Positions 16,164 through 63,187 of a DNA stretch of 64,000 nt are shown piece after piece (position 1 is the first letter of the stretch; each line of letters starts with the position of its first letter). A program made the position numbers and the translations under genes. The stretch comes from Candidatus Kaiserbacteria bacterium. GTDB taxonomy: Bacteria > Patescibacteriota > Minisyncoccia > Phycocordibacterales > Phycocordibacteraceae. Below the pieces are notes generated by a model that saw nothing but the letters and a program-made list of their open reading frames with translations, made no database searches and was not told the origin of the DNA. The stretch spans positions 468,562-532,561 of the forward strand of contig OY969413.1 in NCBI GenBank assembly GCA_963699165.1, written 5' to 3'.

Positions 16164-16171
16164 TTGCTCCC

Positions 16172-17275: not shown

Positions 17276-17300
17276 AAATGTATTTTATCAGTTTTAATAA

Positions 17301-17513: not shown

Positions 17514-17591
17514 AGCTTGTATTCTAGCAGTTTGTTGTGTCCTATATCAATAATGTGATATATTACAATAGATGATGAATGATTTTATAAC

Positions 17592-17910: not shown

Positions 17911-17927
17911 TTTGCCAATACAATTCT

Positions 17928-19583: not shown

Positions 19584-21914
19584 ATCAAATTTTGATTCGA
19601 TAATCTTCATCCCTTCGCCCACCTGCATCCAGAAGAACGCCCAGAGCCAAATAAATGCAGCGAGCGAGAGCGGGATAGCTGTGACGAAGAGGCCAAAGAC
19701 AGCAAACGCGGTTGCTAAGATTTGCGTGAGCGAAGTCGCCCATATGATGCTCTTGGCTGGCAGGAACTTCCACCACCGTTCTTTGGTATGAGCGACATAG
19801 ACGAGCATGTGGCCGGAGACGGTCAGCTTAAGGAAGAATGCGGTCTGAATAATCGCGAGCGGCAGATGGAAAACCTCAGCAAGCAAGAAATACATGAGGA
19901 GACTGTTGGCGACGCCCACGAGGCCGAAGAGTGTTCCGAGCGTGAAGCGTTCGCGGGGCGCGAGATCGGCGGGTCGGTCGGCGCGCTTCACGCGGTCGAA
20001 GGCGAGCGTGATGATAGGAATGTCGTTAAGAAATGCGAGCAGAATAATCTGCACCGGAGTCAGCGGGAATCCTTTGATGATGAGGCCGAGTACAAGCGCA
20101 GTGACGATGAGACGGAAGCTCTCGCTGATGCGATAGACGGAATAGTTATAGAGGCGGAAAAAGATTTTGCGCGCCTCGGTGAGCGCGATCTGCATCACCG
20201 AGATGCCGGAGTCCAAGAGGACGATATCGGCAGTGCCTTTCAAGGCATCGACCGCATTGGCAACCGCAATGCCGACATCAGCCTTGCGTACGGCGGGCAG
20301 GTCGTTCACGCCGTCGCCGGTTGCGGCGACGATGTAGTGCTTTTGCGCGGCCGTCACGAGCGCGAGTTTGTCTTCAGGCGAGACCTCGGCGAAGGCGGCG
20401 GTCGTCGCGAAGATGTTGGCAGGTAGATGTGCGAGATCGAGATCCTTTGTTCGGATGACATTGCCCATGAGCCCAAGCGTTGCGGCGACATGCGTGGCGG
20501 TCTCCTTCGTGTCGCCAGTGACCATAATCGCATCAACGCCTTCGTCTTTAAGGAAACGAAGGGTCTCTTTCGCATCGGCGCGAAGCGGGTCGGCGAGAAC
20601 GAGCATACCGATGAGGCTCATGCCGTGCTCGTCCTCGATGCCCGACGGGTCTTTCTTGATCGCCACCGCTATCGCACGGGAGCCATCCTTGCTGGCGGCG
20701 TCCGTGTCACGATGCACGGTCTCTACGAGGCCGTCGAGCGGTGCACATAAGCCCTCGATGACTGGCGGCGTCCCGATAGATACGACGTAGCGAGTGCCGT
20801 CGTGCTCCAAAAGGGCTGTAGTGCGCTTCCTGGTCGAGTCGGCAGGGATTGAGGCAAGCACGCGATAGTCGGCGACACCGGCCTCGGGCGCGGCGCGGAT
20901 GATTGCTGCATCGATGGCACTCGCCGCCTCGGGGCCCGCTGCTGCGGCTGCATACGCACGCAGCAGCGCTTCAGAGAACTGCGCGTAGGCATGGACGCGC
21001 TCGACGGATATTTTGTTCTCCGTGAGCGTGCCCGTCTTATCGGTGAGCAGGAGCGAGACATTCGCGAAGTCTTCAAGGGAGGAGAGGCGGCGCACCAATG
21101 CTTTCTTGGCCGCCACCGCCAGCGCTCCAATCGAGATAATGAGCGTCATCACGGTCGGCAGAGAGACCGGTATGCCCGCAATGAGGAGCGAGAGATCGAG
21201 GATAAGTATGCTTGCAATCGGCTGACCGTCGAGAATGAAGATGATTGTAAGGATTACGACGGCAATCAAGCTCGCGATGATGAGATAGCGCGAAATGGAG
21301 AGAATGTCGCGCTCCATGCTCGACTTCCGCTTTCCTTCCTTTCCTGCGGAAGCAATCTTACCGAAGAATGCTTGATTGCCGATTGCAGAGACAGTGCCAG
21401 TGAAGTTGCCCGTCACGACGACCGACCCCGAGTATGCGGTATCGCCGACTTTTTTCTCCTTCGGGAGCGACTCGCCGGTGAGCACCGCTTCATTTATTTC
21501 AAGATTGATCGCTTCGTCGATGCACGTGTCGGCCGTCACCAGTGCGCCGACGCCGCATTCGATGACATCCCCCACTACAAGATTGTGCGACGGAACGTTC
21601 TCCCATGCGCCATCGCGCAGCACCTTCGCCTCCACCGAGAGCTGAGAGCGCAGTGCTTCGAGCGCGTTGTCGGCCTTGCGCGTGTGCCAGAGCGTCATGC
21701 CGACGTTCAGCGCCAAGAGCGCGAGGATGAACCACCCGTCAAACTGTTGGCCAATATAGAAGGAGAGCGCTGATGCAACGATAAGCATTAGCGACGCCGG
21801 CGAGGCGAGTGCCTTGAGGAGTTTGACGAATGCGCTTGGCCGCTTCTCAACTATTTCGTTGGGCCCATACTTCGCTAACAAACGGCCCGCTTCTGCGGAT
21901 GAGAGTCCTACCAT
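19548..21914 (-). CDS. cation-transporting P-type ATPase
   Basis: TGES, DKTGTLTEN phosphorylation motif, GDGVNDLPA hinge; 10 TM-like segments. Confidence 0.85.
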   Translation of the reverse strand: MVGLSSAEAGRLLAKYGPNEIVEKRPSAFVKLLKALASPASLMLIVASALSFYIGQQFDGWFILALLALNVGMTLWHTRKADNALEALRSQLSVEAKVLRDGAWENVPSHNLVVGDVIECGVGALVTADTCIDEAINLEINEAVLTGESLPKEKKVGDTAYSGSVVVTGNFTGTVSAIGNQAFFGKIASAGKEGKRKSSMERDILSISRYLIIASLIAVVILTIIFILDGQPIASILILDLSLLIAGIPVSLPTVMTLIISIGALAVAAKKALVRRLSSLEDFANVSLLLTDKTGTLTENKISVERVHAYAQFSEALLRAYAAAAAGPEAASAIDAAIIRAAPEAGVADYRVLASIPADSTRKRTTALLEHDGTRYVVSIGTPPVIEGLCAPLDGLVETVHRDTDAASKDGSRAIAVAIKKDPSGIEDEHGMSLIGMLVLADPLRADAKETLRFLKDEGVDAIMVTGDTKETATHVAATLGLMGNVIRTKDLDLAHLPANIFATTAAFAEVSPEDKLALVTAAQKHYIVAATGDGVNDLPAVRKADVGIAVANAVDALKGTADIVLLDSGISVMQIALTEARKIFFRLYNYSVYRISESFRLIVTALVLGLIIKGFPLTPVQIILLAFLNDIPIITLAFDRVKRADRPADLAPRERFTLGTLFGLVGVANSLLMYFLLAEVFHLPLAIIQTAFFLKLTVSGHMLVYVAHTKERWWKFLPAKSIIWATSLTQILATAFAVFGLFVTAIPLSLAAFIWLWAFFWMQVGEGMKIIESKFDLRPPSRVALIT

Positions 21915-21929
21915 TCTCCCAATTCTAAC

Positions 21930-22346
21930 TTATTTCTTGAATGCGAAATGGAAACTGGAATACGAAAGGTATCCGGGTATGATGACGCCGAGCCACGAGA
22001 GCCAGAGCGGGATGGATACCTCGCCGAGGATAAGATTCCAGCCGAAGGCGATGCGAACTAGGTGAAGCAGGGCGACGATGAGGAAGGCGAGCCCGACCAC
22101 CTTCAACAGGCCGCGCTCAGTCGGCGATTTGATCGGCAGCTTCATGTTCCAGCTGTAGTGGGCAAGGAGCAAGATGAGCACGAGATCGAAAACGATGCCG
22201 GGCCATATCGCGCTCGCGTTCCAGGCGATGCCGAGAATCGTGACCGGCAAGAGCCCCGAGCCCGAGAGCCACAGGGCACAAATAATGTCGGCGATGACGA
22301 GGCCAACGGCGACTTTCGCCAGTTCACGTAAGAAGTGGTGGTGCAT
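21930..22346 (-). CDS. hypothetical integral membrane protein
   Basis: Four hydrophobic segments, no motif recognised. Confidence 0.45.
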   Translation of the reverse strand: MHHHFLRELAKVAVGLVIADIICALWLSGSGLLPVTILGIAWNASAIWPGIVFDLVLILLLAHYSWNMKLPIKSPTERGLLKVVGLAFLIVALLHLVRIAFGWNLILGEVSIPLWLSWLGVIIPGYLSYSSFHFAFKK

Positions 22347-22373
22347 ACCTCTTAAGTATGCCTTGCCCTCCGA

Positions 22374-22556
22374 TTATTTCCACCTATACAAGTGCACAGC
22401 GATGTACATCGCGAGCATCCCAAGGAGGAAGCCCGCGCACACCGTGACAACGTCGTGGAAGGGCACCCAAATGATTCCAAACCATGAGCAGGCGAGAATA
22501 ATCGCCCATACAACGGCGACTCCGATTACGTACACATAGAGCGGGCGCTTGTTCAT
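22374..22556 (-). CDS. small hypothetical membrane protein
   Basis: 60 aa, two TM segments; ATGA overlap with the upstream ORF. Confidence 0.35.
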   Translation of the reverse strand: MNKRPLYVYVIGVAVVWAIILACSWFGIIWVPFHDVVTVCAGFLLGMLAMYIAVHLYRWK

Positions 22557-22804
22557 GAGTGTGTGCTATCACTTTTTTGCGCTCTCCACTTCACAATAAA
22601 AAGAGCTAGAGCACCTGTGACCCAGGCGATTAACAACCCGACTCCTACGCCACGAAAATAGGCATTCCCGGCACTATACCCAATCACAAAGAACACCGCG
22701 CACAGGACAAGCTCAAGTAATACGAGTTTTACGAGGGTCGAGCGCCATGTGTCCATAGTGTCGTAATTGTAGCATAGTTCGATACCGCTTAATTCCAAGC
22801 CCAC
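22553..22804 (-). CDS. small hypothetical membrane protein
   Basis: Two TM segments; start ambiguous (internal Met at 22756). Confidence 0.4.
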   Translation of the reverse strand: MGLELSGIELCYNYDTMDTWRSTLVKLVLLELVLCAVFFVIGYSAGNAYFRGVGVGLLIAWVTGALALFIVKWRAQKSDSTHS

Positions 22805-22820
22805 TTGTTATACTAAATAA

Positions 22821-23123
22821 ATGAAGGTCTCTTCCGGAACGGTACATACTCTGCCCGCAGATCTGAAGAAGGCACTTGCCGCTTCTCCGGGAGCGCTCGC
22901 AGCATGGGAGGACATCTCACCACTTGCGCGCAATGAGTGGATTTGTTGGACCATTTCGGTCAAGCAAGAGGCAACCCGAAAGGACCACGTAAAGAGGGTG
23001 GTCTCGGAACTCCTCGAGGGGATGCGCCGACCGTGTTGTTGGATAGGATGCATTCATAGAACTGACAAATCAATCAGCCCGTCGATACGAGGAATTCTCG
23101 ATAAACGAGCGAAGCGAAAGTAG
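22821..23123 (+). CDS. YdeI/OmpD-associated-like small protein
   Basis: Pattern WEDISPLARNEWICWTISVKQEATRKDHVKRVVSELLEG resembles the YdeI family; not verified. Confidence 0.4.
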   Translation: MKVSSGTVHTLPADLKKALAASPGALAAWEDISPLARNEWICWTISVKQEATRKDHVKRVVSELLEGMRRPCCWIGCIHRTDKSISPSIRGILDKRAKRK

Positions 23124-23127
23124 ACGA

Positions 23128-23362
23128 GCGGAAAAGTTCGGTGTCCCTTCGCCCTATCTAGATTTTCTAAAAACGTACTGTGTAATAACGGCCAAGAATA
23201 AAGCTCTCGGGTCTATCCGATACTAAAGTCTTCGGGCGGGGGCGCAGTCATTCGAACCGTCAACATAGTACTAAGCCCTCACACAGAAGGCGCAGAGATT
23301 CGAACTAAAAATACGTTGTAAAATATAGGTTTCAACATACTACCGATAAAAAGTACTACCTG
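23128..23362. repeat. direct-repeat copy 2 plus tRNA-3'-fragment debris, ending with att-like core copy 3 at 23334-23357, abutting the tRNA-Ser 3' end
   Basis: Alignment with 12757-12930; internal T-arm-like fragments GCGCAGAGATTCGAACT and CAGTCATTCGAACCGTC. Confidence 0.65.
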
Positions 23363-23449
23363 CGGAGGCGGAGAGATTCGAACTCTCGAGAGCCTTTCGA
23401 CCCTGCCGCCTTTCCAAGGCGGTGCACTAGACCACTATGCGACGCCTCC
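23363..23449 (-). tRNA. tRNA-Ser (anticodon GGA)
   Basis: Manual fold: acceptor GGAGGCG/CGCCTCC, anticodon loop TTGGAAA, long variable arm, T-loop TTCGAAT; CCA not encoded. Confidence 0.85.
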
Positions 23450-29437: not shown

Positions 29438-29470
29438 AGGCCCCGCAATAGATGCATTTGGAATAATTTG

Positions 29471-29543
29471 TGCGCCCACCACGACTCGAACGTGGAACCG
29501 CAGAGGTATAAGCTCTGTGCTCTAACCATTGAGCTATGGGCGC
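29471..29543 (-). tRNA. tRNA-Ile (anticodon UAU)
   Basis: Manual fold: acceptor GCGCCCA/TGGGCGC, D-arm GCTC-AATGGTTA-GAGC, anticodon stem CAGAG/CTCTG with loop CTTATAC, T-arm CCACG-TTCGAGT-CGTGG, discriminator A. Confidence 0.7.
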
Positions 29544-52036: not shown

Positions 52037-52113
52037 AATGGCCTCATACTAGCATTTCCGATTGTGAAGGTCGGGCGAACATCCTCCCGCATTTCAAGAA
52101 AAGCCCAGACGGC

Positions 52114-52575
52114 TCAATAACCTTCAGGGGGCCGCATCTTCTCGCCCAAAAGGTTAAATGTTTGCGCCCGTATCTGTGCGTCAATCTTTTTGACCTCATC
52201 GTCTATTTTTTCCCGCTCGTGCGGTGATTTGTCGGCCAGTATGTGTTCGAGTGTTTTCTCAAAATCATTTTTAAACTTCTGGTTTATGTCCTTCCAGCGA
52301 ATGCCTTTCATCTCTTCAGCGATTGCGGCTGTGTACGATAGTTTTCCAATCGCCATCAAGAATGCTATCGCAGGATATCCGAGATAGCCCTTATAAAAAG
52401 ACCCGTTATCGTTAGTCATGATGGAGTTTGAAGCGGGGTCGTACATAACGTCATAGAACTTATTGCCACTGGATGAGTAGACCTTGGCAGTATCCTTAGA
52501 AACCATTATGCGTTTGTCGGTTAAAGCCCCCAACGCTTCATAGATTTTGATTATAGGGGGATGTTTCCACTGCAT
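52114..52575 (-). CDS. hypothetical protein (AT-rich)
   Basis: ORF only. Confidence 0.35.
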   Translation of the reverse strand: MQWKHPPIIKIYEALGALTDKRIMVSKDTAKVYSSSGNKFYDVMYDPASNSIMTNDNGSFYKGYLGYPAIAFLMAIGKLSYTAAIAEEMKGIRWKDINQKFKNDFEKTLEHILADKSPHEREKIDDEVKKIDAQIRAQTFNLLGEKMRPPEGY

Positions 52576-52639
52576 GGCTTTATCTTATAGGTTTCGCGCT
52601 CAAATTAAAAACCTCGGTACAACGTACCGAGGTTTTTGG

Positions 52640-53425
52640 CTATTTGTAGTACTTGGACAGAAAATCTGCCAAGTCGGCAGAGAGTTTCTGCCCTTGTTGC
52701 TGTGATTCACGCTTCCGAAATGCCGAGTAAATCTCGATTTGAATAGCGTTGATGCCGTAGTGTTTTGCATACCAGCGCGTGGTATGACCGGCACTAAACG
52801 GATCGCCTTCGGGAACAGCAGGCGTCTCGGCGGGCAGGAAGACTTTGTATCCGCGCGCTTCCAAAAAGCGTGCAAGCAGCCGGTCGACTTCTCCGAAATG
52901 GATAGTCGTCCGATTTCCCGTTCCAAGGATGAGGTCATAACCCTCTGTCGGAGCTATTTTGGGTTGTTTGCCGAACCCGTGCATGTCCAAGAAGATGATG
53001 TTTTCTTTTCCAAACATGCGCATCGACTGCTCTACCAAGCGGCACAACTCCGAGTGGTAGTGCTCATAGACGCCTTTTAATCGGGTATCATCAAGTGCCG
53101 TTTGCCCTTGCGTGTCCGGGTCAAGATTGGCGCCTGATGGCAATTCTCGATTGGCATCGACATACGCCCGCGCCATCAAGAAGCGCACAACATCTATCTT
53201 TGCGCCACGCATCAAAGCGCCGTACACGATGTCGTTTACAATCGGATACACATGGGCATCGCGCCCTTTGACGCCCGATCTTCGCACTTGAAACATTCCC
53301 GCAAAATCGTTTGCTATGAACCCGTCATGCGGTACTGCGAGGATGACTCTTGAAGCGGTTGGATGCGAAAGAACAATCGAGAAGTTGGAGTTAACGAGTG
53401 TTACACCAGGTGCAAGTTGAATCAC
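52640..53425 (-). CDS. N-formylglutamate amidohydrolase family protein
   Basis: AVPHDG, VDANRE, LDMHGFG motifs. Confidence 0.65.
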   Translation of the reverse strand: MIQLAPGVTLVNSNFSIVLSHPTASRVILAVPHDGFIANDFAGMFQVRRSGVKGRDAHVYPIVNDIVYGALMRGAKIDVVRFLMARAYVDANRELPSGANLDPDTQGQTALDDTRLKGVYEHYHSELCRLVEQSMRMFGKENIIFLDMHGFGKQPKIAPTEGYDLILGTGNRTTIHFGEVDRLLARFLEARGYKVFLPAETPAVPEGDPFSAGHTTRWYAKHYGINAIQIEIYSAFRKRESQQQGQKLSADLADFLSKYYK

Positions 53426-53561
53426 GATTTACTCCTTTGATTTCTGAGTTTGCAGTTCTGCCATATCCGGCTCATTTCTGAAAAACAAAAACTGCCCCGA
53501 GAGGGCAGGTTCAGTTGTGAACAGAATTTGGCAGCCGTCTCAGTCAATATGAATAGCCACC

Positions 53562-53696
53562 GTGGGGCGGATAGCTCGACCAAGTAGAGACGTGCTGGTT
53601 GATAAGCATGTGCCCGACTATAACGCTGTAGAAGCCCGTAGTAAAGATTGCCCCCGAATACTGAAAGAGCCGAAATCGAGCTATCCCCAACCTCAT
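53562..53696. other. candidate structured ncRNA or cis-element closed by a 13-15 bp helix
   Basis: GGGGCGGATAGCTCGA ... TCGAGCTATCCCC enclosing ~100 nt; intergenic. Confidence 0.3.
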
Positions 53697-53784
53697 TGAA
53701 ATTAAATCTTGAGGATGTATAATACGCTCAATCACCACGGAAAAGACCCTTGCAGAGTTCGTCTCTGCCGGGGGTTTTTCCTTT

Positions 53785-54303
53785 TTATATTCGCCTTTTT
53801 GTCCGTGCCTCAAGAAGATGCTTTTGGTCGTCAATATACGCAATCGGGGCGTCCGTCCTCTTCAACAAGATTGAGCATTTGCTTGCAGGAGCGGGAGATA
53901 AGATTGTCTCCAGTTTTCCTTTGTCACTCAATATTTTTATCAGCGGAGCATAATCACCATCGCTCGCGACGATTACCGCTTTCTGTAAGTCGCCCTCGTA
54001 CATATCTGTCATGGCTTGCGTCACAAGATCTGTATCGCAATTCCCTTTCACCTTACCCATGTCATAGAGAACATCTTTGAAAACCAGTTCAAAACCGCAA
54101 CCTTGCAGATAATTATAAAGATTCTTGTACCGCGGAATCAGACCGATGAAAATATATGCACGCTCGACTTTGTATTTATCGCTAAGCCATTTGCGGAATC
54201 TTCCGTAATCGAGCTCCCAGAGAAGCGTCAACCGAAGCGCCTTATCGAGATTGGCGGCATCGATATACGCTATGTTGACTAACTTCCGTCCGTCGGCATC
54301 CAT
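53785..54303 (-). CDS. NYN-domain (LabA-like) protein
   Basis: IAYIDAANL and the overall NYN pattern. Confidence 0.65.
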   Translation of the reverse strand: MDADGRKLVNIAYIDAANLDKALRLTLLWELDYGRFRKWLSDKYKVERAYIFIGLIPRYKNLYNYLQGCGFELVFKDVLYDMGKVKGNCDTDLVTQAMTDMYEGDLQKAVIVASDGDYAPLIKILSDKGKLETILSPAPASKCSILLKRTDAPIAYIDDQKHLLEARTKRRI

Positions 54304-54330
54304 TTTCGAATTTTACCACCTCCACTCGCC

Positions 54331-54909
54331 TCAAGAAAAACCCAGGCGGCTTTTCTTGAGTTCTTTTCGCAAAGCACGGTAGTCCGGCACGGTTTTGGCG
54401 ACCAAATCCCAAAATTTCTTCGAATGATTGAATTCGCCTAAGTGGCAGAGCTCATGCACGACGATGTAGTCCGCAAGATGCGGCGGCAAAAGCGCGATTT
54501 TGTAGTTAAAATTCAAATTGCCCTTGCGCGAGCAACTGCCCCACCGCGTCTTTTGATTTCTGATTTGTATCTTGTTCACGCGAAAATGATACGAGGAATT
54601 GAAATGTTCAATGCGTTTTTCAGCAAGCGCTAGCGCGCTTGCTTTGTGCTCGGCAAAATGCTTTTTACTGCTTTTTACAAAAACCTGTCCGGTAAACTTT
54701 TTAAAATAGTCGAGCTTGTCCGAAATCCAAACCGATTTTTTTGCGACAAATTCCTCGGCCAGCCGCTTATTCATTTGCCGCGGCACCGTCACTACGCACG
54801 CGCCGTCACAGCGTACGGTTAGCCGCATCCTCCGCGCGCGCTTACTCACCTTGAGCGTGTATGAGATGTTTCTCTTTGGCAATTGACTTCGCATTTGCAA
54901 TTTTGACAT
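54331..54909 (-). CDS. YgjP-like (DUF45/WLM) metallopeptidase
   Basis: HELCHL HExxH near the C-terminus; basic N-terminal region. Confidence 0.7.
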   Translation of the reverse strand: MSKLQMRSQLPKRNISYTLKVSKRARRMRLTVRCDGACVVTVPRQMNKRLAEEFVAKKSVWISDKLDYFKKFTGQVFVKSSKKHFAEHKASALALAEKRIEHFNSSYHFRVNKIQIRNQKTRWGSCSRKGNLNFNYKIALLPPHLADYIVVHELCHLGEFNHSKKFWDLVAKTVPDYRALRKELKKSRLGFS

Positions 54910-54952
54910 CAGTTTTGATTAAAACTCGGTCATGTCTATCTGCGACTACCAA

Positions 54953-55771
54953 CTAATTTCCAACTAGTGGTGCTGCTTTCTTTTCAACGCCAATTTGATG
55001 CTCGCCGAATTTAACTTTATACGCTGTGAAAAGTTCTTGCGCCAGATCTAAGATGGTTTTTGTATATCCCTCCATAGTGGATTCAGTTCTAGTTTTTCGA
55101 GTACGATATCTAACTGTCCTCGAAGCTGCGCCAAGCAGATTAATATCCATATTATGGCTAATTTCATTTCTCACCGTAAAGGCGTCTCTTAATAAATTAA
55201 GTTTTGCAGTAGTAAAAATCTGCTTGGTATTTAATCCAGATGCGTCGGAAGCTTTGCAAAGTTGGCCTGTCGACTGGAGACTTTCTTTTGTCATGCTTTC
55301 AATATAGTCCCTCAGAAAAACGTCTCGCGGTTGTCTATCAATCAATGCAAGGGCAACTGTATTTAGCGTATCTTTCTCGTTTCGGTTAATTCCACTCCTG
55401 ACGTATTCTTTAAATTTGTTCTGTGCAGTCTCATCGACATCAACCAACATCGAGAGTTTGGAACTCAAAAGTTGTTTGACAAGCATATCCAGTCCGGCAC
55501 ACGCAAAAATTAACATGGCTCGATATAAATCTTGTTGTGCGTGCGTAGACGGTCCACCTCTCGCCCCACTACGCCCCGTTCTGTATAATGTATTGAAATT
55601 ATTGACCGCCTCGACCGTTTTTAAAATGACACTGTGTTCAAATTCGAATAGGCTCCCGGGACTTTCTGCTTCGAGGGTAGTTCTGTAAAAAATGTGAGAT
55701 TGGTTTGGTATTGCTCTTCCAGGGTGCGGTCTCCGAACTGTAATTTTTTTTGATACTTTTTTTGCTGCCAT
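54953..55771 (-). CDS. hypothetical protein (AT-rich accessory)
   Basis: ORF only. Confidence 0.4.
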   Translation of the reverse strand: MAAKKVSKKITVRRPHPGRAIPNQSHIFYRTTLEAESPGSLFEFEHSVILKTVEAVNNFNTLYRTGRSGARGGPSTHAQQDLYRAMLIFACAGLDMLVKQLLSSKLSMLVDVDETAQNKFKEYVRSGINRNEKDTLNTVALALIDRQPRDVFLRDYIESMTKESLQSTGQLCKASDASGLNTKQIFTTAKLNLLRDAFTVRNEISHNMDINLLGAASRTVRYRTRKTRTESTMEGYTKTILDLAQELFTAYKVKFGEHQIGVEKKAAPLVGN

Positions 55772-55777
55772 AAAATT

Positions 55778-56176
55778 TTATGAAATGCGATCTTCTGTTG
55801 TTGGAAGTGCAGTTGCAACACCTTCCGAAAATAAAGTATCACAATGCTGCAACATACTTTCTATAAAACGCCCATGATAAACGGCATATACCAGCGAGCT
55901 GATGTTGACGGGTTCTGGTTTAATAATTGTTAGAACAAGTTCACCAGTCCTGACGTGTGGGCGAAGCCAAGCCTTATTCCTCCACTGATCTGGCGTATGC
56001 GTAAAATCACCATCCGTATCACATGACCAAGTTACAATTAGCTTTTCGTCAATCGCTTTTTTGAAAGCATTTAGTAAAGCCTGTGGGGTGTTTGTTTTGA
56101 AATGTATTGCCATATTTGTACAAGTGTCACGCCTTAAATTATGGCAGTGGCCTTTTCGTATAACATCGGTAGACAA
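55778..56176 (-). CDS. hypothetical protein
   Basis: ORF only; overlaps the REase 3' end by ~40 nt. Confidence 0.35.
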   Translation of the reverse strand: MSTDVIRKGHCHNLRRDTCTNMAIHFKTNTPQALLNAFKKAIDEKLIVTWSCDTDGDFTHTPDQWRNKAWLRPHVRTGELVLTIIKPEPVNISSLVYAVYHGRFIESMLQHCDTLFSEGVATALPTTEDRIS

Positions 56177-56928
56177 TCCTGCCTCATCCTAAATTTCGTA
56201 CCATGATTGTGTCCCGTGCGCGCGTCGAAATCGACAAGAACTTTCCCTTCTTCCAAAGCTTTTAGAAAGCCTTCAAAGCTGAATTTCTGCAACATAGTCA
56301 CTTTCGTATAGTGGTAAAACTCTTTCTTCTTTTCTTTCTTGACTTCGGCCTGTACATAAAACGCATTAAGCAATTTTGTCCCTGCCTTGTGCTCCAAATC
56401 GTCGAATCCCCAATAGGGTTGCGGATTGAGATCCTTAAGGCCCACCTTCTTGCCCACACCAGCGAGCCACTTCTTGTGCCGAACATCAACACTTTGTGCA
56501 TCAAACGAAATCAAGACTTTGCGTTCCTTTCGGTCTATGACAACTTTAAAGCCTCTATCGCTCGGCGACTGTCCATGTATTGTTTGTCGAAAACTCATTT
56601 CGCATTTCGGGTACGTCGTGCCACTTTCCTGGTGAGCCCACCCGTATTTCGGCAGGAGAATTTGCGGAACGAATCGAATGGCTCGCGGCGAAGGCTCAAT
56701 ATGGAAAAGTGTCGTGAGAGAAGTTGTGTCGATTCTTTGCGTCTTCAATTCCCATTCCGCAGCATTTGGTATCGGCAAATTATTTTCTTTTATACCGAGC
56801 AAATCTTCCAGCGTGTTTCCAATTCCACCCGCATTACCGTGTCGAGCATTTGGAATCCATCCAGCAGCTGAAATCTTTTGCAGTTTTGCAATGAGTGCTG
56901 GCTTCGTATAAATGACAGGTTTGGGCAT
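56134..56928 (-). CDS. candidate type II restriction endonuclease
   Basis: Starts 4 nt after the stop of the SPPY methyltransferase; family not recognised (MvaI/BcnI-like is a guess). Confidence 0.45.
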   Translation of the reverse strand: MPKPVIYTKPALIAKLQKISAAGWIPNARHGNAGGIGNTLEDLLGIKENNLPIPNAAEWELKTQRIDTTSLTTLFHIEPSPRAIRFVPQILLPKYGWAHQESGTTYPKCEMSFRQTIHGQSPSDRGFKVVIDRKERKVLISFDAQSVDVRHKKWLAGVGKKVGLKDLNPQPYWGFDDLEHKAGTKLLNAFYVQAEVKKEKKKEFYHYTKVTMLQKFSFEGFLKALEEGKVLVDFDARTGHNHGTKFRMRQDCLPMLYEKATAII

Positions 56929-56932
56929 GGAA

Positions 56933-57814
56933 TTATAAAAGTCTTATTTGTGCTAAATGGTCTTTGATTCTTTTCTCTGCCATTTCGCAGTACTCCGGCG
57001 AAATCTCGATACCGACATATTGTCGCCCATGATTAAGAGCTGAAATAGCAGTAGTACCTGAACCCATGAAAGGATCTAGGATTGTTTTAGCAGTAGTTGA
57101 AGATATGATTCTGTCTATCAAATCTACTGGAAAAGCCGCCGGGTGTTCGTTATTCATTTCTTGCGTAAATTCCCACACGTCTCCATGCCCATTTGCTTTC
57201 GGAGCAAGTCTAAAATCTTTTTTCGCGATGAGATAAATAACTTCGTATGTCGGCACAAAATAACCCGGATTAAAATTGAAACCACCTTTCCGGCGCCAGA
57301 TAATTATTTGGCGAACGGGAAAACTGTTCACAATGTCCTGTCGGTCCTGTAATAGTCCGTTTTGCACGCGCCATTTGTGATTATAAAAAATTGCGCCGTC
57401 GTCAGGGATAATCCGCATCATTTCAATAAGGCATCGTCTCTGCCAGTCCACATACTCCTCATGCGGCATGCAGTCATTGTGATGAGAATATCCTTTTTGG
57501 AGTGCAGCGTTCGCCCATTTGCCTCCACGTCCGTCTTTCATTCCGTTGCCAGTAGAATTCTTCAGATTGTACGGAGGCGAAGTTACGACGATGTCGATTG
57601 AACCGTCAGGAATTCTTTTCATTACGTCAACGACATCTCCGCATATGATTTTATTCAAAAAAGTATCGGCAAAAGATGGCTCCTGCCTTTTTTGTGAGAC
57701 AGCGCGTTTTGGTTCCTTTTTAAGAGTAAGCGTAGGCATATTGCTTTGGAAATAATACGCGAAAATCCTCGCAAATCCTAGTGGTGTTTGAAAAGCAATA
57801 TGCATTTTTTGCAT
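56933..57814 (-). CDS. DNA methyltransferase, beta-class amino-MTase (SPPY motif IV; N4-cytosine or N6-adenine)
   Basis: DIVVTSPPY and FDPFMGSGTT (motif I after motif IV = beta permutation); alternative start MPTLT at 57739; ORF reported from a TTG at 57880. Confidence 0.8.
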   Translation of the reverse strand: MQKMHIAFQTPLGFARIFAYYFQSNMPTLTLKKEPKRAVSQKRQEPSFADTFLNKIICGDVVDVMKRIPDGSIDIVVTSPPYNLKNSTGNGMKDGRGGKWANAALQKGYSHHNDCMPHEEYVDWQRRCLIEMMRIIPDDGAIFYNHKWRVQNGLLQDRQDIVNSFPVRQIIIWRRKGGFNFNPGYFVPTYEVIYLIAKKDFRLAPKANGHGDVWEFTQEMNNEHPAAFPVDLIDRIISSTTAKTILDPFMGSGTTAISALNHGRQYVGIEISPEYCEMAEKRIKDHLAQIRLL

Positions 57815-57823
57815 ATTGCTTTT
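57791..57823. promoter_or_regulatory. 14-bp perfect inverted repeat with 5-T spacer overlapping the methyltransferase start region (candidate operator)
   Basis: AAAAGCAATATGCA-TTTTT-TGCATATTGCTTTT. Confidence 0.5.
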
Positions 57824-57877
57824 CAATAGATGGCTTACTTTATAGATATTCGAACTGTTGCAAGTTTTGCAACAGCT

Positions 57878-57927
57878 CAACTCTCCCGCTTGCCGTGGAG
57901 GAGGAGGTCGAGGGCGTATTGCATCGA
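57878..57927. repeat. ABC-3'-end repeat copy 1 (minus strand encodes FSMQYALDLLLHGKRES*)
   Basis: Alignment with 61433-61496. Confidence 0.85.
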
Positions 57928-57932
57928 AAACA

Positions 57933-58622
57933 TTATTTCTTCTGAAGAACTTCCCATTCCAACTTCAATGCTGACATTCGGTCAAGCAAAATGGGATGAG
58001 AAATATATGGAAGCGCATAAGTATAAAATTCTTCAAACAACGGAATATGTTGTTCCTTTTCATACTCCAATGCCTTTTCAACCGCTTGATATTTATCGAG
58101 CTGTCTTCCGAAAGATGCGGCGGCATCGCCTGAAGATTCAAAGCGAAGCCAAAGTTTCATAATCTCCTCTCCGGCATCCCCCATTCCACTGCAAATTTGC
58201 GTCAATGCTTTCTTTTCATTTTCGAACTTGATTGCTTTCAGCATTTTTCTTTCAGCCTCGTCGATTGTTGTGATGACTTCATCTCCGTGAATTGCCTCCG
58301 GCCAATCGTGCACTTCAAGCATGTCGAACAATCCATCTTTCTCCTCATCGGTGAGATTCCCGAACGAATTCGCCAAAACCCTTAACGCAACTATGTGATC
58401 TTGAACGGTTTCTGGATTTTCAACACCTCTACGTACCCATACGGTCCTAGGCAATTCTCCCAAGGCCTTCCAGACTTCAGGTGCGAGTTGTGCAAATTTA
58501 AGATTAGGCGCTTTCTCACTTTCGCCCGCCGTCTTGGGGTTAGGAAATGATTCATTCATTTTACTATTGTAGCTTAGCGGAGAATGAGATTCGACCGGGT
58601 GCTCAACTCTCCCTCTTGCCAT
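57933..58622 (-). CDS. HD-domain phosphohydrolase (YfbR-like)
   Basis: H...HD pattern: VQDHIVAL ... EVHDWPEAIHGD; alternative start MNESF at 58560. Confidence 0.65.
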   Translation of the reverse strand: MARGRVEHPVESHSPLSYNSKMNESFPNPKTAGESEKAPNLKFAQLAPEVWKALGELPRTVWVRRGVENPETVQDHIVALRVLANSFGNLTDEEKDGLFDMLEVHDWPEAIHGDEVITTIDEAERKMLKAIKFENEKKALTQICSGMGDAGEEIMKLWLRFESSGDAAASFGRQLDKYQAVEKALEYEKEQHIPLFEEFYTYALPYISHPILLDRMSALKLEWEVLQKK

Positions 58623-58660
58623 GAAGGAGGAGGTCGAGGGCGTGCTGCATCGAGCCCGCG
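58605..58660. repeat. ABC-3'-end repeat copy 2 (FAGSMQHALDLLLHGKRES*)
   Basis: Alignment. Confidence 0.85.
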
Positions 58661-58673
58661 AAACACGGCAGAG

Positions 58674-59132
58674 TTATTTCTCTACGATTCCCAATCGTGA
58701 TATGCCATACTCTTCAAATTCGTCCTCCCACTTAATAATGCAATCTTGCAGTTTCATAAACCGCTCTTCCTGCGTCATTTTTTTCCATTCTTCTTCGCTA
58801 TATCTATTGAAGAAATCCCTATCGCCAAGACGATCTTCAAGTTCATCCCAAAAAGCTTCATCGTCATATTCCTTAATAAGCCGGCTGATTTCAGTATCTT
58901 GTCCTGAAGGGTCGTATTCCAATTGGTGTTCAAATTGCTTGGGAAGGCCAAACAGCGGCGCAAGCGAAAAAACGTAATCCGCAATTTCATTGTATTTATC
59001 CAGATGCGGGTCGTCTTCCCTTCCTGTCCTATGACAATTTGCCATCCAATTCCCGAGGTAAACCAGTTGCGCGAGCGCAATATATTGATCTTTCGTAAAT
59101 TCCAGCGGCACTTTGGGCGTATTTGTCTCCAT
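58674..59132 (-). CDS. hypothetical acidic protein immediately downstream of the Doc/RhuM gene
   Basis: 152 aa, D/E-rich; 4-nt gap to the upstream gene. Confidence 0.4.
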   Translation of the reverse strand: METNTPKVPLEFTKDQYIALAQLVYLGNWMANCHRTGREDDPHLDKYNEIADYVFSLAPLFGLPKQFEHQLEYDPSGQDTEISRLIKEYDDEAFWDELEDRLGDRDFFNRYSEEEWKKMTQEERFMKLQDCIIKWEDEFEEYGISRLGIVEK

Positions 59133-59135
59133 AAT

Positions 59136-60083
59136 TTATTTCAGGAGTTGGGTAATGAGCGCGACCATTTGCTCTTTGTTTTTCGGGTCGCTCTCGGCCG
59201 TCAAAAGAGTAAGCGCAGTGAGCGCGCTCGGATTGATATTTCGGGCCGTTTTTACTTTCGCCTTTCGCAAGAACCAGATAAACGCAAAAGCACCCGAGCG
59301 CTTGTTGCCGTCGGTAAACGGATGGTTCTTGACCATGAAATACAGAAGATGTGCGGCCTTTTCTTCGATGCTCGCGTACACCGGCTTCCCGCCAAACGTC
59401 TGCATGACGTTACCGACAATTCCTTCCACATTCCCGGCGGCTCGTTCTTGCGCAAAAATTTCCGTCGCTTCTCCTTTCTTTAAAAGTTCCGAGCGAAGAT
59501 TGGCGATTGCCTCGGTAAGTTCGACGCCGGTGAGCTTAATTGCTTTCTTGGTAATTCCGACCGGCGTGAGCGTACCGCGGTCGTAGGCATCGAGCGAAAT
59601 CCATGTTCCCGAAAACTCTTTTACCAATTCGAGTATCGCTTTCGGATCGAGAACGACGTGTTCGGGCAAAAGCGCCTGAATGTCGCCGACCGACTTCATA
59701 AAGGCATCGTAGTTTTTGCCGATTTGCTTGCGATTGATGGTGTACCCCTTCGTGATGTGCTCGCGAAGCGTCTTGGTCGCCCATTGGCGGAATTCGATGG
59801 CAACTTTCGAATTTGTCCTGTATCCGACGCTTAAAACAACATCCAATGAATACATGGCCGTCGGCTTGAAGGAAGTAATGTGCATTTTTTGCACATTACT
59901 CTTTTCATCAATTTCCTTGTCTGTGAAGATCTTTCTGATGTGTTTTGTGACCACCGAACGTTCAATTCCAAAAACGTCTGCAATCTGGGCTTGTGTCGCC
60001 CAAATGCTCTCGTGTTCGAAATCGCCACGCAGTTCGATTGCGCCATTCTTCGCCTGATATATCACCACCTTATTTTTCGCCAT
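59136..60083 (-). CDS. Fic/Doc-family protein with an RhuM-like N-terminal domain
   Basis: N-terminus AKNKVVIYQAKNGAIELRGDFEHESIWATQAQIADVFGIERSVVTKHI (RhuM-like); Doc motif HPFTDGNKRSGAFA. Confidence 0.75.
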   Translation of the reverse strand: MAKNKVVIYQAKNGAIELRGDFEHESIWATQAQIADVFGIERSVVTKHIRKIFTDKEIDEKSNVQKMHITSFKPTAMYSLDVVLSVGYRTNSKVAIEFRQWATKTLREHITKGYTINRKQIGKNYDAFMKSVGDIQALLPEHVVLDPKAILELVKEFSGTWISLDAYDRGTLTPVGITKKAIKLTGVELTEAIANLRSELLKKGEATEIFAQERAAGNVEGIVGNVMQTFGGKPVYASIEEKAAHLLYFMVKNHPFTDGNKRSGAFAFIWFLRKAKVKTARNINPSALTALTLLTAESDPKNKEQMVALITQLLK

Positions 60084-60109
60084 ATACCGGCTATTGTATC
60101 ACTGCGGTT

Positions 60110-60162
60110 CTAACTCTCCCTTTTGCCGTGGAGGAGGAGGTCGAGGGCGTGCTGCACGAGCA
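60110..60162. repeat. ABC-3'-end repeat copy 3 (...ECSVQHALDLLLHGKRES*)
   Basis: Alignment. Confidence 0.85.
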
Positions 60163-60209
60163 CTCGGATGTGACATTGTCTTTTTTATCGTAATTAGTCC
60201 CACTTAGCT

Positions 60210-60746
60210 CTACTTTAAATTCCAAGCATCTTTTCCCGTTTCTAGAATCTTCCGTTCTTTTTCTAACAGCGGGTCATGAACTCGCTCTCTGTCACTTTTC
60301 TCGATAACAGTCCACATCTTGCCCGGCTTTTTTTCTCCACCATCAAGTTTTGGCTTCCTGTAACCTCTATTTAGGTTAATCTGTGCAGCTTTCTCAGCTG
60401 TTTTAATTGGAAGAATATAGCACTGATATTTTGATGGCGATTGAACTGCGACAAAAGCGACATACTGTGCTGTGTAAAATGAATCCTTTCTGTTGAAAAC
60501 GGGCTCTCGTCCACTGATAGTTTCCGAATCGGAATGCCCATACTGAATCCACCATCTGGCACCTATTTTATTGGTCGCGCCTTTCACTTGTATTTGCCAA
60601 GTTTTTCCATTCTTTGCGGCGAGTATATCTGAATTCGCACTCATACCGTCTTTGTTAAGATCCGTTGTGCGGTACCCGCGCGACTCGAGTTCGTTCATGA
60701 CTATTCTCTCGGCAATCTTCCCTATGCTTATTTTATTGAGAGACAT
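60210..60746 (-). CDS. PD-(D/E)xK nuclease, Hjc/Mrr-cat-like fold (restriction-endonuclease-like)
   Basis: IAERIVMNELESRGYRTTD...DILAAKNGKTWQIQVKG pattern. Confidence 0.5.
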   Translation of the reverse strand: MSLNKISIGKIAERIVMNELESRGYRTTDLNKDGMSANSDILAAKNGKTWQIQVKGATNKIGARWWIQYGHSDSETISGREPVFNRKDSFYTAQYVAFVAVQSPSKYQCYILPIKTAEKAAQINLNRGYRKPKLDGGEKKPGKMWTVIEKSDRERVHDPLLEKERKILETGKDAWNLK

Positions 60747-60802
60747 AGCGACTAGATTAACACTGATTGGAATTTAGGTGGAGAGGGTTTTACCACACTT
60801 TG

Positions 60803-60868
60803 TTAACTCTCCCTCTTGCCGTGGAGGAGGAGGTCGAGGGCGTGCTGCATCGAGCCCGCGGAGGTGAT
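60803..60868. repeat. ABC-3'-end repeat copy 4 (in frame after the kinase stop: ENISRLNHGITSAGSMQHALDLLLHGKRES*)
   Basis: Alignment; frame check. Confidence 0.85.
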
Positions 60869-60895
60869 TCCGTGATTCAAGCGAGAAATGTTCTC

Positions 60896-61405
60896 TTAGG
60901 ACAAACGTTCAAGATAGGCATCAATTTCTTTATGTGAGCGCAAAATGAGTACTTTATTTTTGTGTTCATTAATAAATCGACGGAGTTTCGACGCCTTGGT
61001 AAAGGTTCGCTTAATAATTTCCCCGAAGAATAGTACGTCGTCCCAAAAACTCGTTTCTTTATGGCGTTCTCGCGGATGCAACATTCTTTTCCCGTGGCTT
61101 ACTAGCCGTCTCCAAAGTGGGATATCGAGAAAAATAATCTGATCTGCCTGTGCGGCTATAAGATCTTGTATATGCAGATATGTCCCGTCTGAAACCCAAG
61201 ACTCTGCTTTAAGCGCCTCTGTCGCTTTATCTCTCACTCTCGCCCGCACTTGTTGGATAGTCGGCGCCGAACCACCGCTGATGTGTCCGCCACTCTCAAA
61301 CCAAAAACGGTCGAGATGGATGTGCGGTATAGAAAGTTTTTTTGATATCGCTTCAGCAAGCGTCGACTTCCCCGCCGCCGGTAGTCCGACTATATCTATG
61401 CGCAT
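60896..61405 (-). CDS. P-loop NTPase (adenylate-kinase-like / AAA_18 topology-modulation-like kinase)
   Basis: Walker A GLPAAGKST near the N-terminus; 169 aa. Confidence 0.55.
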   Translation of the reverse strand: MRIDIVGLPAAGKSTLAEAISKKLSIPHIHLDRFWFESGGHISGGSAPTIQQVRARVRDKATEALKAESWVSDGTYLHIQDLIAAQADQIIFLDIPLWRRLVSHGKRMLHPRERHKETSFWDDVLFFGEIIKRTFTKASKLRRFINEHKNKVLILRSHKEIDAYLERLS

Positions 61406-61429
61406 GGAAATAAGTATACCGCTTCTACC

Positions 61430-63187
61430 CTAACTCTCCCGCTTGCCATGAAGGAGGAGGTCGAGGGCGTGTTGCATCGAGCCCGCGGAGGTGATTTCGC
61501 CCGAGTTTACGAAGTAGATTTCGTCCGCGTCGCTGATGGTGTTTAGGCGGTGCGCGATAACTACTTTCGTCGTGGTGGCCGGAAGCTTATTTAAAATGTC
61601 TTCAAGCAATTTCTCCGTGACGGTATCGATGTTGGCGGTGGCTTCGTCCAAAATGAGAAGCTCGGGACTTCGAAGCACGGCGCGGATAAATGCGATGAGC
61701 TGTTTTTGCCCCAAGCTTATGGTCTCGCCACCCGACGTGATTTCGGTGTCGAGCCCGCCTTCAAAGCGCTCCAAAAGATTTGCGAGGCCTTCGTCTTTCA
61801 AAATCGCGGCCAACTCTTCGCTTGTGCGATTGAGGTATGCGGCATTGCCGTACACAATGTTGTCGCGCACGGTTCCGGTAAAGAGGAACGGCTCTTGGAG
61901 GAGATAGCCGATTTTTTGCGCGCGCTCGGCCGACTCGTATGCGCGGATGTCTTTACCTTGAAAGAAGACACTGCCTTTGGTCGGGTCGTAAAGCCGCGCC
62001 ATGAGCGAAGCAGTTGTAGTCTTGCCGCCGCCGGTCGGACCAACAAGCGCATAGGTCTTCCCTTTTTCAAGTTTCAAATTGATGTTTTTCAAGATGTCGG
62101 TGCCGTCCGGATAATGGAAAGAAACATCTTTGAATTCGAGCACGAGCGGTGAGTCGGTTTGCTTTGAAGGCACGATGGGCATGTCGGACTCGAGATTCAG
62201 GATATCGGTGATGCGCTGAAGCCCGGCGAGTGCGAGCTGAACGCTCGACCATACGGAAGCAAATTGGCGGAGCGGGTTGTAGAAATTGCTCGTGTAGATA
62301 AGGAAGCTAATGAGAAGTCCGACCGTAAAAATGCCGCTCGAAATGAGATAGATACCGTAAGCAAGCACGATGAGCTGTCCTAAATCGTAGGAGAGATCAA
62401 ACATCGGGCCGAACAGATTGTTCGCGACGCCCGCGCCGATGGAAGCGCGATAGTTTGCCGTATTGCTCTCGTTGAATTTTTCGCGGAAGTAGTCGAGGCG
62501 ATTGAAAGCAATCATCGCTTTGAAGTTTTTGAGGGATTCTTGGATTTCCGCGCTCATGCCGCCCAAGGACTGGAGGCTTTTGAGGTTGCGCGCCTGCACC
62601 CACGGGGAGATGACGCGCACGATGAGGGTGACCATGAGCGCGGGAAGAAGTGCGGCAATCCCGAGCCGCCAGTTGAGCACGATGAGGAAGATGCCGGTGC
62701 CGGTCAGTGTAAAGAGACCGCCGATAAAGCGCGTGAGGGATTCCGCAAACAGCTGGTTGAGCTTCTGCGTGTCGTTGTTGATGCGCGAAATCAGGTCGCC
62801 CGATTTATTTTGATTGAAGAAAACAATCGGCAGCTCCTGCAGTTTATTGAAAATCGAATTGCGCAGTTTGAAAAGAATGCGGATACCGATGCCGCCCATC
62901 GTAAGCGTCTGCACATAGCTTCCGATTCCGCCCACGATGTACACGGCAAGAAGCACACATGATGCAACAAGCACGCCGTGGAAATCTTTTGTTGCTATGA
63001 AATGGTCGATGGTGTAGCCGATGATGAACGGCGCCGCAAGCGAGCTCGCGGACGAAACCAAAATCGCGGCGAGCGACACGAATAGATTGCGTCCTTCGCC
63101 CGCGGTGAGCGCCCAAAGCTTTCGAAGCCCTTGCCCCAAGGACCCCTTCTCACTCTCCGTTTCGGACATATTAAGCTTGTAGTTCAT
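61430..63187 (-). CDS. ABC exporter, fused permease-ATPase (half-transporter)
   Basis: 6 TM, then NBD with GPTGGGKTT, LSGGQKQ, ILDEATA; the C-terminal ~20 codons form repeat copy 5; ORF reported from an upstream in-frame start. Confidence 0.85.
   Translation of the reverse strand: MNYKLNMSETESEKGSLGQGLRKLWALTAGEGRNLFVSLAAILVSSASSLAAPFIIGYTIDHFIATKDFHGVLVASCVLLAVYIVGGIGSYVQTLTMGGIGIRILFKLRNSIFNKLQELPIVFFNQNKSGDLISRINNDTQKLNQLFAESLTRFIGGLFTLTGTGIFLIVLNWRLGIAALLPALMVTLIVRVISPWVQARNLKSLQSLGGMSAEIQESLKNFKAMIAFNRLDYFREKFNESNTANYRASIGAGVANNLFGPMFDLSYDLGQLIVLAYGIYLISSGIFTVGLLISFLIYTSNFYNPLRQFASVWSSVQLALAGLQRITDILNLESDMPIVPSKQTDSPLVLEFKDVSFHYPDGTDILKNINLKLEKGKTYALVGPTGGGKTTTASLMARLYDPTKGSVFFQGKDIRAYESAERAQKIGYLLQEPFLFTGTVRDNIVYGNAAYLNRTSEELAAILKDEGLANLLERFEGGLDTEITSGGETISLGQKQLIAFIRAVLRSPELLILDEATANIDTVTEKLLEDILNKLPATTTKVVIAHRLNTISDADEIYFVNSGEITSAGSMQHALDLLLHGKRES
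61433..61496. repeat. ABC-3'-end repeat copy 5 (master copy; native 3' end of the ABC gene: ...SGEITSAGSMQHALDLLLHGKRES*)
   Basis: Alignment. Confidence 0.85.

Follow-up and report, generated by a model that had tools for sequence, protein, structure and literature searches.

How does the end of one protein-coding gene come to stand five times in a row, with unrelated genes between the copies? The question is raised by a stretch of 64,000 nt from the genome of a Candidatus Kaiserbacteria bacterium (Patescibacteriota; assembly GCA_963699165.1, contig OY969413.1, positions 468,562 to 532,561 of the forward strand), the whole of which is referred to here as the window. The final 47–70 nt of an ABC exporter gene are present five times, all as direct repeats on the minus strand, and nowhere else in the window. 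The copies comprise the last 14–22 codons of the gene and flank small gene cassettes. We consider it moderately probable that they are attachment-site scars of the repeated insertion of small, circular, recombinase-less cassettes into the 3′ end of the ABC gene. Little is known of mobile elements, or of gene flow, in Patescibacteria (Candidate Phyla Radiation).

Five direct copies of an ABC exporter gene end

The gene whose end is repeated is the second of a tandem pair encoding half-transporters with transmembrane and ATPase domains, and the pair ends at position 61430 on the minus strand (Table 1). The 585-aa exporter is also called as a gene in GCA_049279115.1, and the two proteins are identical. 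In 74 orthologues, each exactly 585 aa long, the C-terminal pattern AGSMxxAxxxLLHGxxxS-stop is nearly invariant; the tail is strongly selected across the family, and the exact length of the gene is conserved too. The nearest orthologue found has 76% identity and the next 66%, each with a single gene end.

A 37-nt pattern matched the window five times, compared with 0.00 matches expected from shuffled sequence. An nhmmer profile of the five copies, run over the window and the adjoining 9 kb, recovered these five and no others (E 1e-19 to 1e-23; next best match, E 0.25), and the same search revealed no decayed extra copies in the distal island or upstream. All five encode the peptide (Q)(H/Y)ALDLLLHGKRES followed by a stop codon. 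Homology between the copies stops at this codon, for which TAG, TAA and TGA are all used. Over 45 nt the copies are 89–96% identical, whereas the best orthologue 3′ end found reaches 84%. By our own count, a single copy has a GC content of about 62%.

The copies are numbered from 1, the most distant from the gene, to 5, the functional gene end. Among the displaced copies, copy 4 has the longest homology to the gene (~66 nt). The peptide translations given for the five copies in the initial annotation read as written, except that the 'ECSVQH' of copy 3 joins two frames: this copy has a 1-nt deletion (TCG-TGCAG), and its in-frame reading is ...IRVLVQHALDLLLHGKRES and stop. The variation of the stop codons had also been noted, and runs TAG, TAA, TAG, TGA, TGA from copy 5 to copy 1.

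Together the copies bound four compact cassettes (A to D, of 627, 693, 1507 and 726 nt), each with one or two open reading frames (ORFs), all on the minus strand. The cassettes are packed with intact same-strand ORFs, and the non-coding spacers measure just 8–150 nt. Their composition is foreign, with a GC content of 0.44–0.48 versus 0.52–0.57 in the ABC genes. No terminator-like site was predicted in the minus-strand intergenic stretches from 61430 to copy 1, the sole two minus-strand matches lying inside the Fic ORF of cassette C, and the cassettes may be transcribed together with the ABC genes. A perfect hairpin stands directly after the stop codon of copy 1 (Table 1), and may mark where the ABC transcription unit originally ended.

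Coding constraint on one arm and mosaic variation

The 14 sense codons shared by all copies contain six variable sites, five of them synonymous (CAA/CAG, CTT/CTC, CAT/CAC, AAG/AAA and CGG/AGG) and one missense (H→Y, in copy 1). The initial annotation had described the differences as mostly synonymous, with KR encoded as AAG CGG, AAG AGG or AAA AGG, LHG as CTC CAC GGC or CTT CAT GGC, and Q as CAA or CAG. These codons were right, and the excess of silent sites was borne out statistically (P about 0.002–0.02). A dN/dS ratio is not meaningful with 14 codons, and binomial and Fisher tests were used in its place. Given an expected synonymous fraction of 0.21–0.27, the binomial probability of at least five synonymous sites out of six is 0.002–0.007, or 0.009–0.02 when the linked CTT/CAT pair is taken as one event. 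Read in any of the other five frames, the six sites include just 0–3 silent ones. An in-frame stop is retained in all four displaced copies (TAA, TAG, TGA, TGA), for which the chance probability is 0.0012 with the shared T granted.

A 19-nt block, ACGCCCTCGACCTCCTCCT, is invariant across all five copies, and variation differs on its two sides. On the 3′ side, comprising the last eight codons and the stop, all four variable sites are silent. On the 5′ side, homology to the gene extends for ~30, 26, 17 and 8 nt in copies 4, 3, 2 and 1, respectively. Copy 1, with the shortest arm, carries its H→Y change immediately 5′ of the block; copies 2 and 4 carry S→F and E→G changes, and the 5′ arm of copy 3 contains three missense changes and one silent change besides the frameshifting 1-nt deletion. 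The contrast between the arms gave a Fisher P of 0.048 when homology limits were set conservatively, and ~0.02 when the copy-3 arm was included in full. Copy 3 has five changes in the 26 nt of its 5′ arm versus one silent change in the 42 nt of block and 3′ arm, plus a different stop. This contrast excludes neutral decay after insertion and indicates that the arms are under different constraints. The coding constraint is one-sided, with silent changes only 3′ of the block, and missense changes and a frameshift 5′ of it. Purifying selection on the protein, to which the variation had originally been attributed, agrees with the synonymous excess and with the near-invariant tail of the orthologues, but does not extend to the 5′ arms, which are damaged.

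Conservation could also reflect a function of the repeat in its present place, either as an RNA or DNA structure (a terminator, a processing site or an attC hairpin) or as a 15-residue peptide translated on its own, (M/V)QHALDLLLHGKRES. The integron-like layout of small same-strand cassettes fits this explanation, as does the in-frame ATG (GTG in copy 3) that precedes QHALD... in all five copies, but the ATG is not preceded by a purine-rich ribosome-binding sequence (CGCGGGCTCG ATG). All ten folds, of both strands of the five copies, were no more stable than those of shuffled sequences (z −0.92 to +1.99). There was no Rfam match in the array and no terminator-like site predicted at the copies. 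Furthermore, an RNA or DNA element would not confine variation to the third codon positions of one frame. We regard a function in place as very improbable.

Three narrower candidates were also rejected. A known RNA family or terminator was dismissed on the Rfam and terminator results just given, and an integron attC site on the folds together with the finding of no IntI among the window ORFs scanned. Fusion of the copies to the cassette proteins was dismissed on reading frame: copy 4 shares the frame of the kinase-like ORF, as the initial annotation had correctly noted, and it alone of the four displaced copies is in frame with the preceding gene, as expected from the 1-in-3 chance rate; coincidence is most likely.

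The variation is a mosaic. In the order copy 5, 4, 3, 2, 1, the site patterns are AGGGA, TCCTC (twice), CAAAC, AAAGG and GAGAA. These six informative sites fall into four different splits of the five copies. Among the six possible pairs of splits, five are mutually incompatible, and the mosaic fits no tree. This bears on an account of the array in which the gene end was duplicated in place and then diverged, and the intervening genes arrived separately. The greater identity of the copies to each other than to the best orthologue is in keeping with such duplication. However, the incompatible splits would require many exact reversals, including three switches of the linked CTT-CAT and CTC-CAC pair. 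Untranslated duplicates should moreover gain random changes, but here five of six changes are silent and all stops are kept, and duplication offers no mechanism by which unrelated low-GC genes were set precisely between the copies. We give duplication in place almost no credence, in agreement with the initial annotation, which had argued against it and is upheld by the incompatible splits and the unrelated genes between copies.

The initial annotation had further taken the copies to stem from different alleles of the target gene, and hence from different donor lineages, and had suggested a check for exact matches of a copy to the ABC 3′ end of another lineage. No such match was found: searches gave no database match to any copy, and the best orthologue 3′ ends have at least 7 mismatches in 44 nt. 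Donor lineages for the copies are hypothetical.

Origin of the array and known counterparts

Several features are in line with repeated insertion: the copies are all direct and on the strand of the gene, their homology stops at a stop codon that varies, all variable sites 3′ of the block are silent, the variants form a mosaic, and the cassettes have a foreign composition. If the array arose in this way, each cassette would carry a mimic of the gene end, consisting of a loosely similar 5′ arm, the identical 19-nt block and a 3′ arm. Strand exchange would occur within the block, and the 3′ arm, encoding the last eight residues and the stop, would become the new end of the ABC protein. Recombination of the cassette site with the gene end would place the cassette directly behind the gene and shift the former gene end downstream behind the cassette, where it would be preceded by the 5′ arm of the cassette. 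Four insertions would yield the order ABC / kinase-like / PD-(D/E)XK-like / RhuM-Fic + 152 aa / HD / old gene end, with the newest cassette being the one that adjoins the ABC gene. Because the ABC tail is constrained, only cassettes with a correctly coding 3′ arm would persist, which would account for the silent-only variation and the obligatory stop. The 5′ arms, with their missense changes and frameshift, fit an attachment site maintained by the cassettes better than a piece of a working ABC gene. The favoured catalyst would be a site-specific recombinase supplied in trans, for which the large serine recombinase at 17928-19583 is the sole candidate in the window.

The junctions that such events would leave can be predicted from the sequence, which makes the system directly testable. 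As written from the sequence, the circle junction of cassette A would read ...GGAATCACCTCCGCGGGCTCGATGCAGC-ACGCCCTCGACCTCCTCCT-TCATGGCAAGCGGGAGAGTTAGGGTAGAAGCGG, and its loss would leave the ABC gene with the junction ...GGCTCGATGCAAC-ACGCCCTCGACCTCCTCCT-CCACGGCAAGAGGGAGAGTTAACAAAGTG. If the cassettes are mobile, they would offer a compact model for the sampling of defence and toxin genes by very small genomes, and would show how an attachment site can evolve when just one of its arms is under coding constraint. If the cassettes are immobile, the locus would be an ordinary integration hotspot.

Several observations weigh against repeated insertion of this kind. No recombinase was found in or beside the array, from 52 kb to the window end, or in the 9 kb past it. 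The serine recombinase is the only site-specific recombinase found in the window, and lies 42 kb off in a separate island. It scored 34–95 bits, versus cut-offs of 700–900 for CcrA/B/C, and also far under the XisF cut-off; it is not specifically Ccr-like, and is a candidate for acting in trans only. Cassette ends showed no consistent terminal inverted repeats or shared motifs. All four variant combinations are present even at sites 7 nt apart (LH versus R), so that one fixed crossover point is insufficient, and recurrent silent mutation or gene conversion is also needed. All the statistics are based on 6–13 variable sites; the numbers are small but consistent, and every test is in the same direction.

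The array is furthermore present in one organism only, and no circular form, empty site or other cassette order was observed. A repeated gene end was found in 0 of 109 other ABC exporter loci, comprising 92 control loci, most of them distant (~30% identity), and 17 contigs of two further lineages; among the 109 are ~20 distinct Patescibacteria orthologues. The relatives covered were seven Patescibacteria orthologues from genomes, ten metagenome contigs found via a degenerate codon pattern, and the 76% and 66% orthologues. The two further lineages were sampled on 14 and 15 contigs, and the genes downstream of the ABC locus are constant across samples within each. The degenerate codon-pattern scan of metagenome contigs returned single-copy orthologues only. 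In viral contigs the degenerate pattern gave nothing, and four 19-mer matches were due to chance, their flanks being unrelated. No autonomous element carrying the site was found in the viral or metagenome contigs scanned.

In the main rival explanation, the same stacking would have been catalysed by the RecA-dependent homologous recombination of the host: a circle of one cassette and one copy would loop out through recombination of two direct copies and, after uptake by a related cell, insert at the ABC gene end there by a single crossover through 20–36 nt of identical sequence. This would explain an array with no associated recombinase, and is consistent with the uninterrupted identity of 19–36 nt between copies and with homology lengths that vary among copies from 51 to 70 nt. 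The occurrence of all four variant combinations, both across the block and within the 3′ arm, is as expected for variable crossover or conversion end points. However, a segment taken from a functioning ABC gene should carry neither frameshifts nor missense changes on either side of the block, and the 5′ arms have both. The origin of the gene-end copy in the first cassette, and the end of homology exactly at the stop codon, would be left unexplained. An identity of 19–36 nt is at or under the minimum for efficient RecA recombination. We consider a RecA-dependent origin possible but somewhat unlikely.

The source being a metagenome-assembled genome, an assembly artefact has to be weighed as well, in which variant strains that differ in the genes following the ABC gene were joined through the shared repeat. 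Logan contig SRR27973122_91408, assembled from short reads and belonging to this organism, breaks inside copy 4. It ends at window position 60831, 30 nt into a 36-nt identical stretch that copies 2 and 4 have in common; this identity exceeds 31 nt, and the break is that expected of an assembly graph with k=31 (k assumed) and no evidence of population variation. Junctions between a cassette 3′ end and a 5′ arm of 8–30 nt could not come from strains with full ABC genes, and the copies are not identical. A separately deposited 54.5-kb record, GCA_049279115.1, perhaps from the same reads, has the 12.6-kb arrangement with 100% identity, and the longest contig recorded for the ABC protein measures 993 kb. 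We judge an artefact highly improbable, and under it only the cassette order could be affected.

Insertion of cassettes at a gene end, as we favour it for the array, has its nearest counterpart in the staphylococcal cassette chromosome (SCC), including SCCmec with its target orfX and composite islands in which some elements lack a recombinase. The two are alike in their point of integration, the 3′ end of a conserved gene of the chromosome, with flanking direct repeats that contain the last codons; in replacement of the gene-end nucleotides with an unchanged peptide (here with five of six sites silent and three stops); and in several elements standing in tandem downstream of the gene, each repeat being a possible next target. 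In SCCmec, 15 bp of orfX are replaced by different nucleotides encoding the same peptide, and SCCs are stacked in tandem between direct repeats (PMC3780952). They differ in the target, which is an ABC exporter here and rlmH (orfX) in SCC; in the repeat, which here has 45 nt of shared codons and stop with a 19-nt invariant block, versus ~15–18 bp; in the cassettes, which here measure 0.6–1.5 kb with one or two genes, versus tens of kb; and in the host, a member of the Patescibacteria rather than staphylococci. Unlike SCC, the array has no ccr-type recombinase or terminal inverted repeats. The locus would extend the SCCmec principle, insertion into the end of a needed gene with a silent replacement end, to a distant phylum and at integron scale.

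A second likeness is to cis-mobilizable elements (CIMEs), which lack a recombinase, keep attachment sites that include the target-gene 3′ end, and accumulate in tandem. Accretion of elements at the 3′ ends of target genes has been described, including CIMEs derived from ICEs (integrative and conjugative elements) or IMEs (integrative mobilizable elements) (PMC5704250). Examples are ICESt1-related elements in Streptococcus thermophilus, and IMEs that sit at the 3′ end of a tRNA or protein gene. CIMEs are by definition decayed ICEs or IMEs, whereas the cassettes here have intact ORFs and contain no remnants of transfer or integration genes.

Integrons, among them arrays with no integrase close by, have in common with the array small cassettes of one or two genes, in one orientation and tightly packed, each ending in a repeat and with no internal recombinase; here also no terminator-like site was predicted between the upstream gene and the cassettes. 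In contrast to integrons, the repeats fold into no hairpin and have no R''/L''/L'/R' organisation, and no RYYYAAC partner for the GTT end of the repeat was seen by eye. The array adjoins an ABC exporter, neither an IntI-type recombinase nor any other tyrosine-recombinase domain was found in those window ORFs that were scanned or annotated (nearly all ORFs of at least 200 aa), and the recombination site would double as the coding end of a host gene.

The ssrA islands of Dehalococcoides reportedly arise by repeated integration at the tmRNA gene and retain partial 3′-end scars. Islands at tRNA and tmRNA genes, including tycheposons, resemble the array in that newer elements push older ones inward and partial copies of the target 3′ end remain; the same window also holds an island at tRNA-Ser. 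In the tycheposon islands of Prochlorococcus, incoming elements displace older ones and leave partial tRNA copies (bioRxiv 10.1101/2020.12.28.424599). The target here is instead protein-coding, so that constraint is visible as silent changes and a kept stop, and the cassettes have no integrase.

The array belongs to none of these four families; SCCmec/orfX comes nearest, and CIME accretion next. The array is unusual in combining integron-sized recombinase-less cassettes, a linear coding attachment site and a host in the Patescibacteria, and our literature searches returned no description of comparable arrays in that group. A bolder proposal, which we put forward tentatively and regard as unlikely, is that Patescibacteria have an integron-like capture platform. 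In it, a trans-acting enzyme would insert recombinase-less single-gene cassettes into the ABC coding 3′ end, with expression by read-through and a linear, non-hairpin site doubling as last codons and stop; the kinase-like cassette would be a captured chromosomal gene.

Cassette genes and other regions of the window

Table 1. Features of the array, the adjoining island and the serine recombinase, in window coordinates. The lower coordinate of each copy is that at which its stop codon begins, in plus-strand numbering.
Feature	Position	Strand	Evidence or remark
ABC exporter gene, 585 aa, repeat target	61430..63187	-	Pfam ABC_membrane 6.7e-49 and ABC_tran 1.4e-29
Copy 5, functional ABC 3′ end (...SGEITSAGSMQHALDLLLHGKRES, stop TAG)	61430..61499	-	19-nt block 61452-61470
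Cassette A (60803-61429): P-loop kinase-like protein, 169 aa	60896..61405	-	Weak AAA_18/AAA_33 matches
Copy 4 (stop TAA)	60803..60872	-	19-nt block 60825-60843
Cassette B (60110-60802): 178-aa protein, PD-(D/E)XK-type family	60210..60746	-	Family name from one source
Copy 3 (stop TAG)	60110..60177	-	19-nt block 60132-60150
Cassette C (58603-60109), gene 1: RhuM/Fic-DOC protein, 315 aa	59136..60083	-	Pfam Virulence_RhuM 3.6e-16, Fic 1.9e-11
Cassette C, gene 2: 152-aa protein	58674..59132	-	Starts 4 nt past Fic gene end
Copy 2 (stop TGA)	58603..58662	-	19-nt block 58625-58643
Cassette D (57877-58602): HD-domain phosphohydrolase, 208 aa	57933..58559	-	Pfam HD_3 9.1e-18
Copy 1 (stop TGA), most distant from gene	57877..57927	-	19-nt block 57899-57917
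Perfect 9-bp hairpin CTGTTGCAA-AAC-TTGCAACAG directly after copy 1 stop	57855..57875	-	Read from sequence
Rest of low-GC island, no gene-end repeats	52050..57876 (~5.8 kb)	-	GC 0.40-0.50 versus 0.52-0.60 in flanks; Pfam, PADLOC
N4/N6 methylase	56933-57622	-	Low-GC island beyond copy 1
MvaI/BcnI endonuclease	56134-56928	-	Restriction-modification pair with N4/N6 methylase
HEPN-like gene	54953-55771	-	Low-GC island
YgjP-like gene	54331-54909	-	Low-GC island
NYN gene	53785-54303	-	Low-GC island
FGase gene	52640-53425	-	Low-GC island
Pfam UCP014422 gene	52114-52575	-	Low-GC island
Large serine recombinase, 551 aa	17928..19583	+	Pfam Resolvase, Recombinase, Zn_ribbon_recom

The kinase-like protein of cassette A matched the NCBIfam family 'DNA topology modulation protein' at 4.8e-18, under the cut-off. 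Its homologues (63–65% identity) in other Paceibacteria, from many samples, lie in a conserved HhH-GPD/HAD hydrolase/kinase/PspC/HhH-GPD neighbourhood with no ABC neighbour; judged by this gene order, the gene is displaced from its usual housekeeping context here.

The 178-aa protein of cassette B has no Pfam match of its own. Homologues with 45–79% identity are present in several phyla, some with PF11645, and one source names a member 'PD(D/E)XK endonuclease domain-containing'. A homologue with 75% identity lies in a probable mobile element (positions 2369-8849 of its contig) with a helix-turn-helix/ImmA pair, a Prim-Pol/PriCT primase and a serine recombinase; the homologue gene itself has no flanking repeats. 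The scatter of this family across phyla, like the displaced kinase-like gene, is in line with the insertion of cassettes.

The RhuM/Fic-DOC protein of cassette C matched the PADLOC defence candidate PDC-S23 (8.6e-103) and a Doc-like toxin in PHROGs. The 152-aa protein encoded next to it had no match in Pfam, PADLOC, NCBIfam, PHROGs or PDB. When the cassette proteins were looked up by exact match, this organism alone was returned, and searches of viral contigs with two of them were empty. Elsewhere, the homologues of two cassette genes lie without flanking repeats and have no adjoining ABC gene.

Between copy 1 and the methylase gene of the low-GC island, a 31-nt palindrome, GCAATATGCA-TTTTTT-TGCATATTGC, is present at 57793-57823. 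A second copy, GTAATGTGCA-TTTTTT-TGCACATTAC, lies inside the RhuM/Fic ORF at 59873-59903, with unrelated flanks. The copies differ at two places in one arm, and both differences have their mirror image in the second arm, which indicates that the palindrome has been kept through compensatory changes; it could be an operator or a hairpin.

The serine recombinase belongs to a second integration hotspot, at 12768-23449, with a tRNA-Ser(gga) gene at 23362-23449 on the minus strand. The 3′ end of this tRNA gene is partly copied at 23284, 23236, 19427 and 12871 (73–91% identity). A 139-nt direct repeat (12768-12906 and 23133-23271, 85%) encloses ~10 kb with genes for an extracytoplasmic function sigma factor, a second Fic protein, the large serine recombinase and a P-type ATPase. 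A perfect 203-nt inverted repeat (15713-15915 and 17589-17791) encloses the Fic gene (16172-17275), and the arms of a perfect 120-nt inverted repeat lie just upstream of the serine recombinase gene and inside its 3′ part (17787-17906 and 19311-19430). These inverted repeats could be invertible segments or an assembly artefact.

In a further region (9887-11217), an rve-type transposase gene (10385-11167), flanked by inverted repeats of 35–37 nt, has a perfect 175-nt tandem duplication (9890-10064 and 10065-10239) just upstream of it, and is followed by a gene for a TdeIII-type restriction endonuclease. Finally, ARAGORN predicted a tRNA-Ile with the anticodon TAT at 29470-29543; in most bacteria, AUA is read instead by a modified CAT anticodon.

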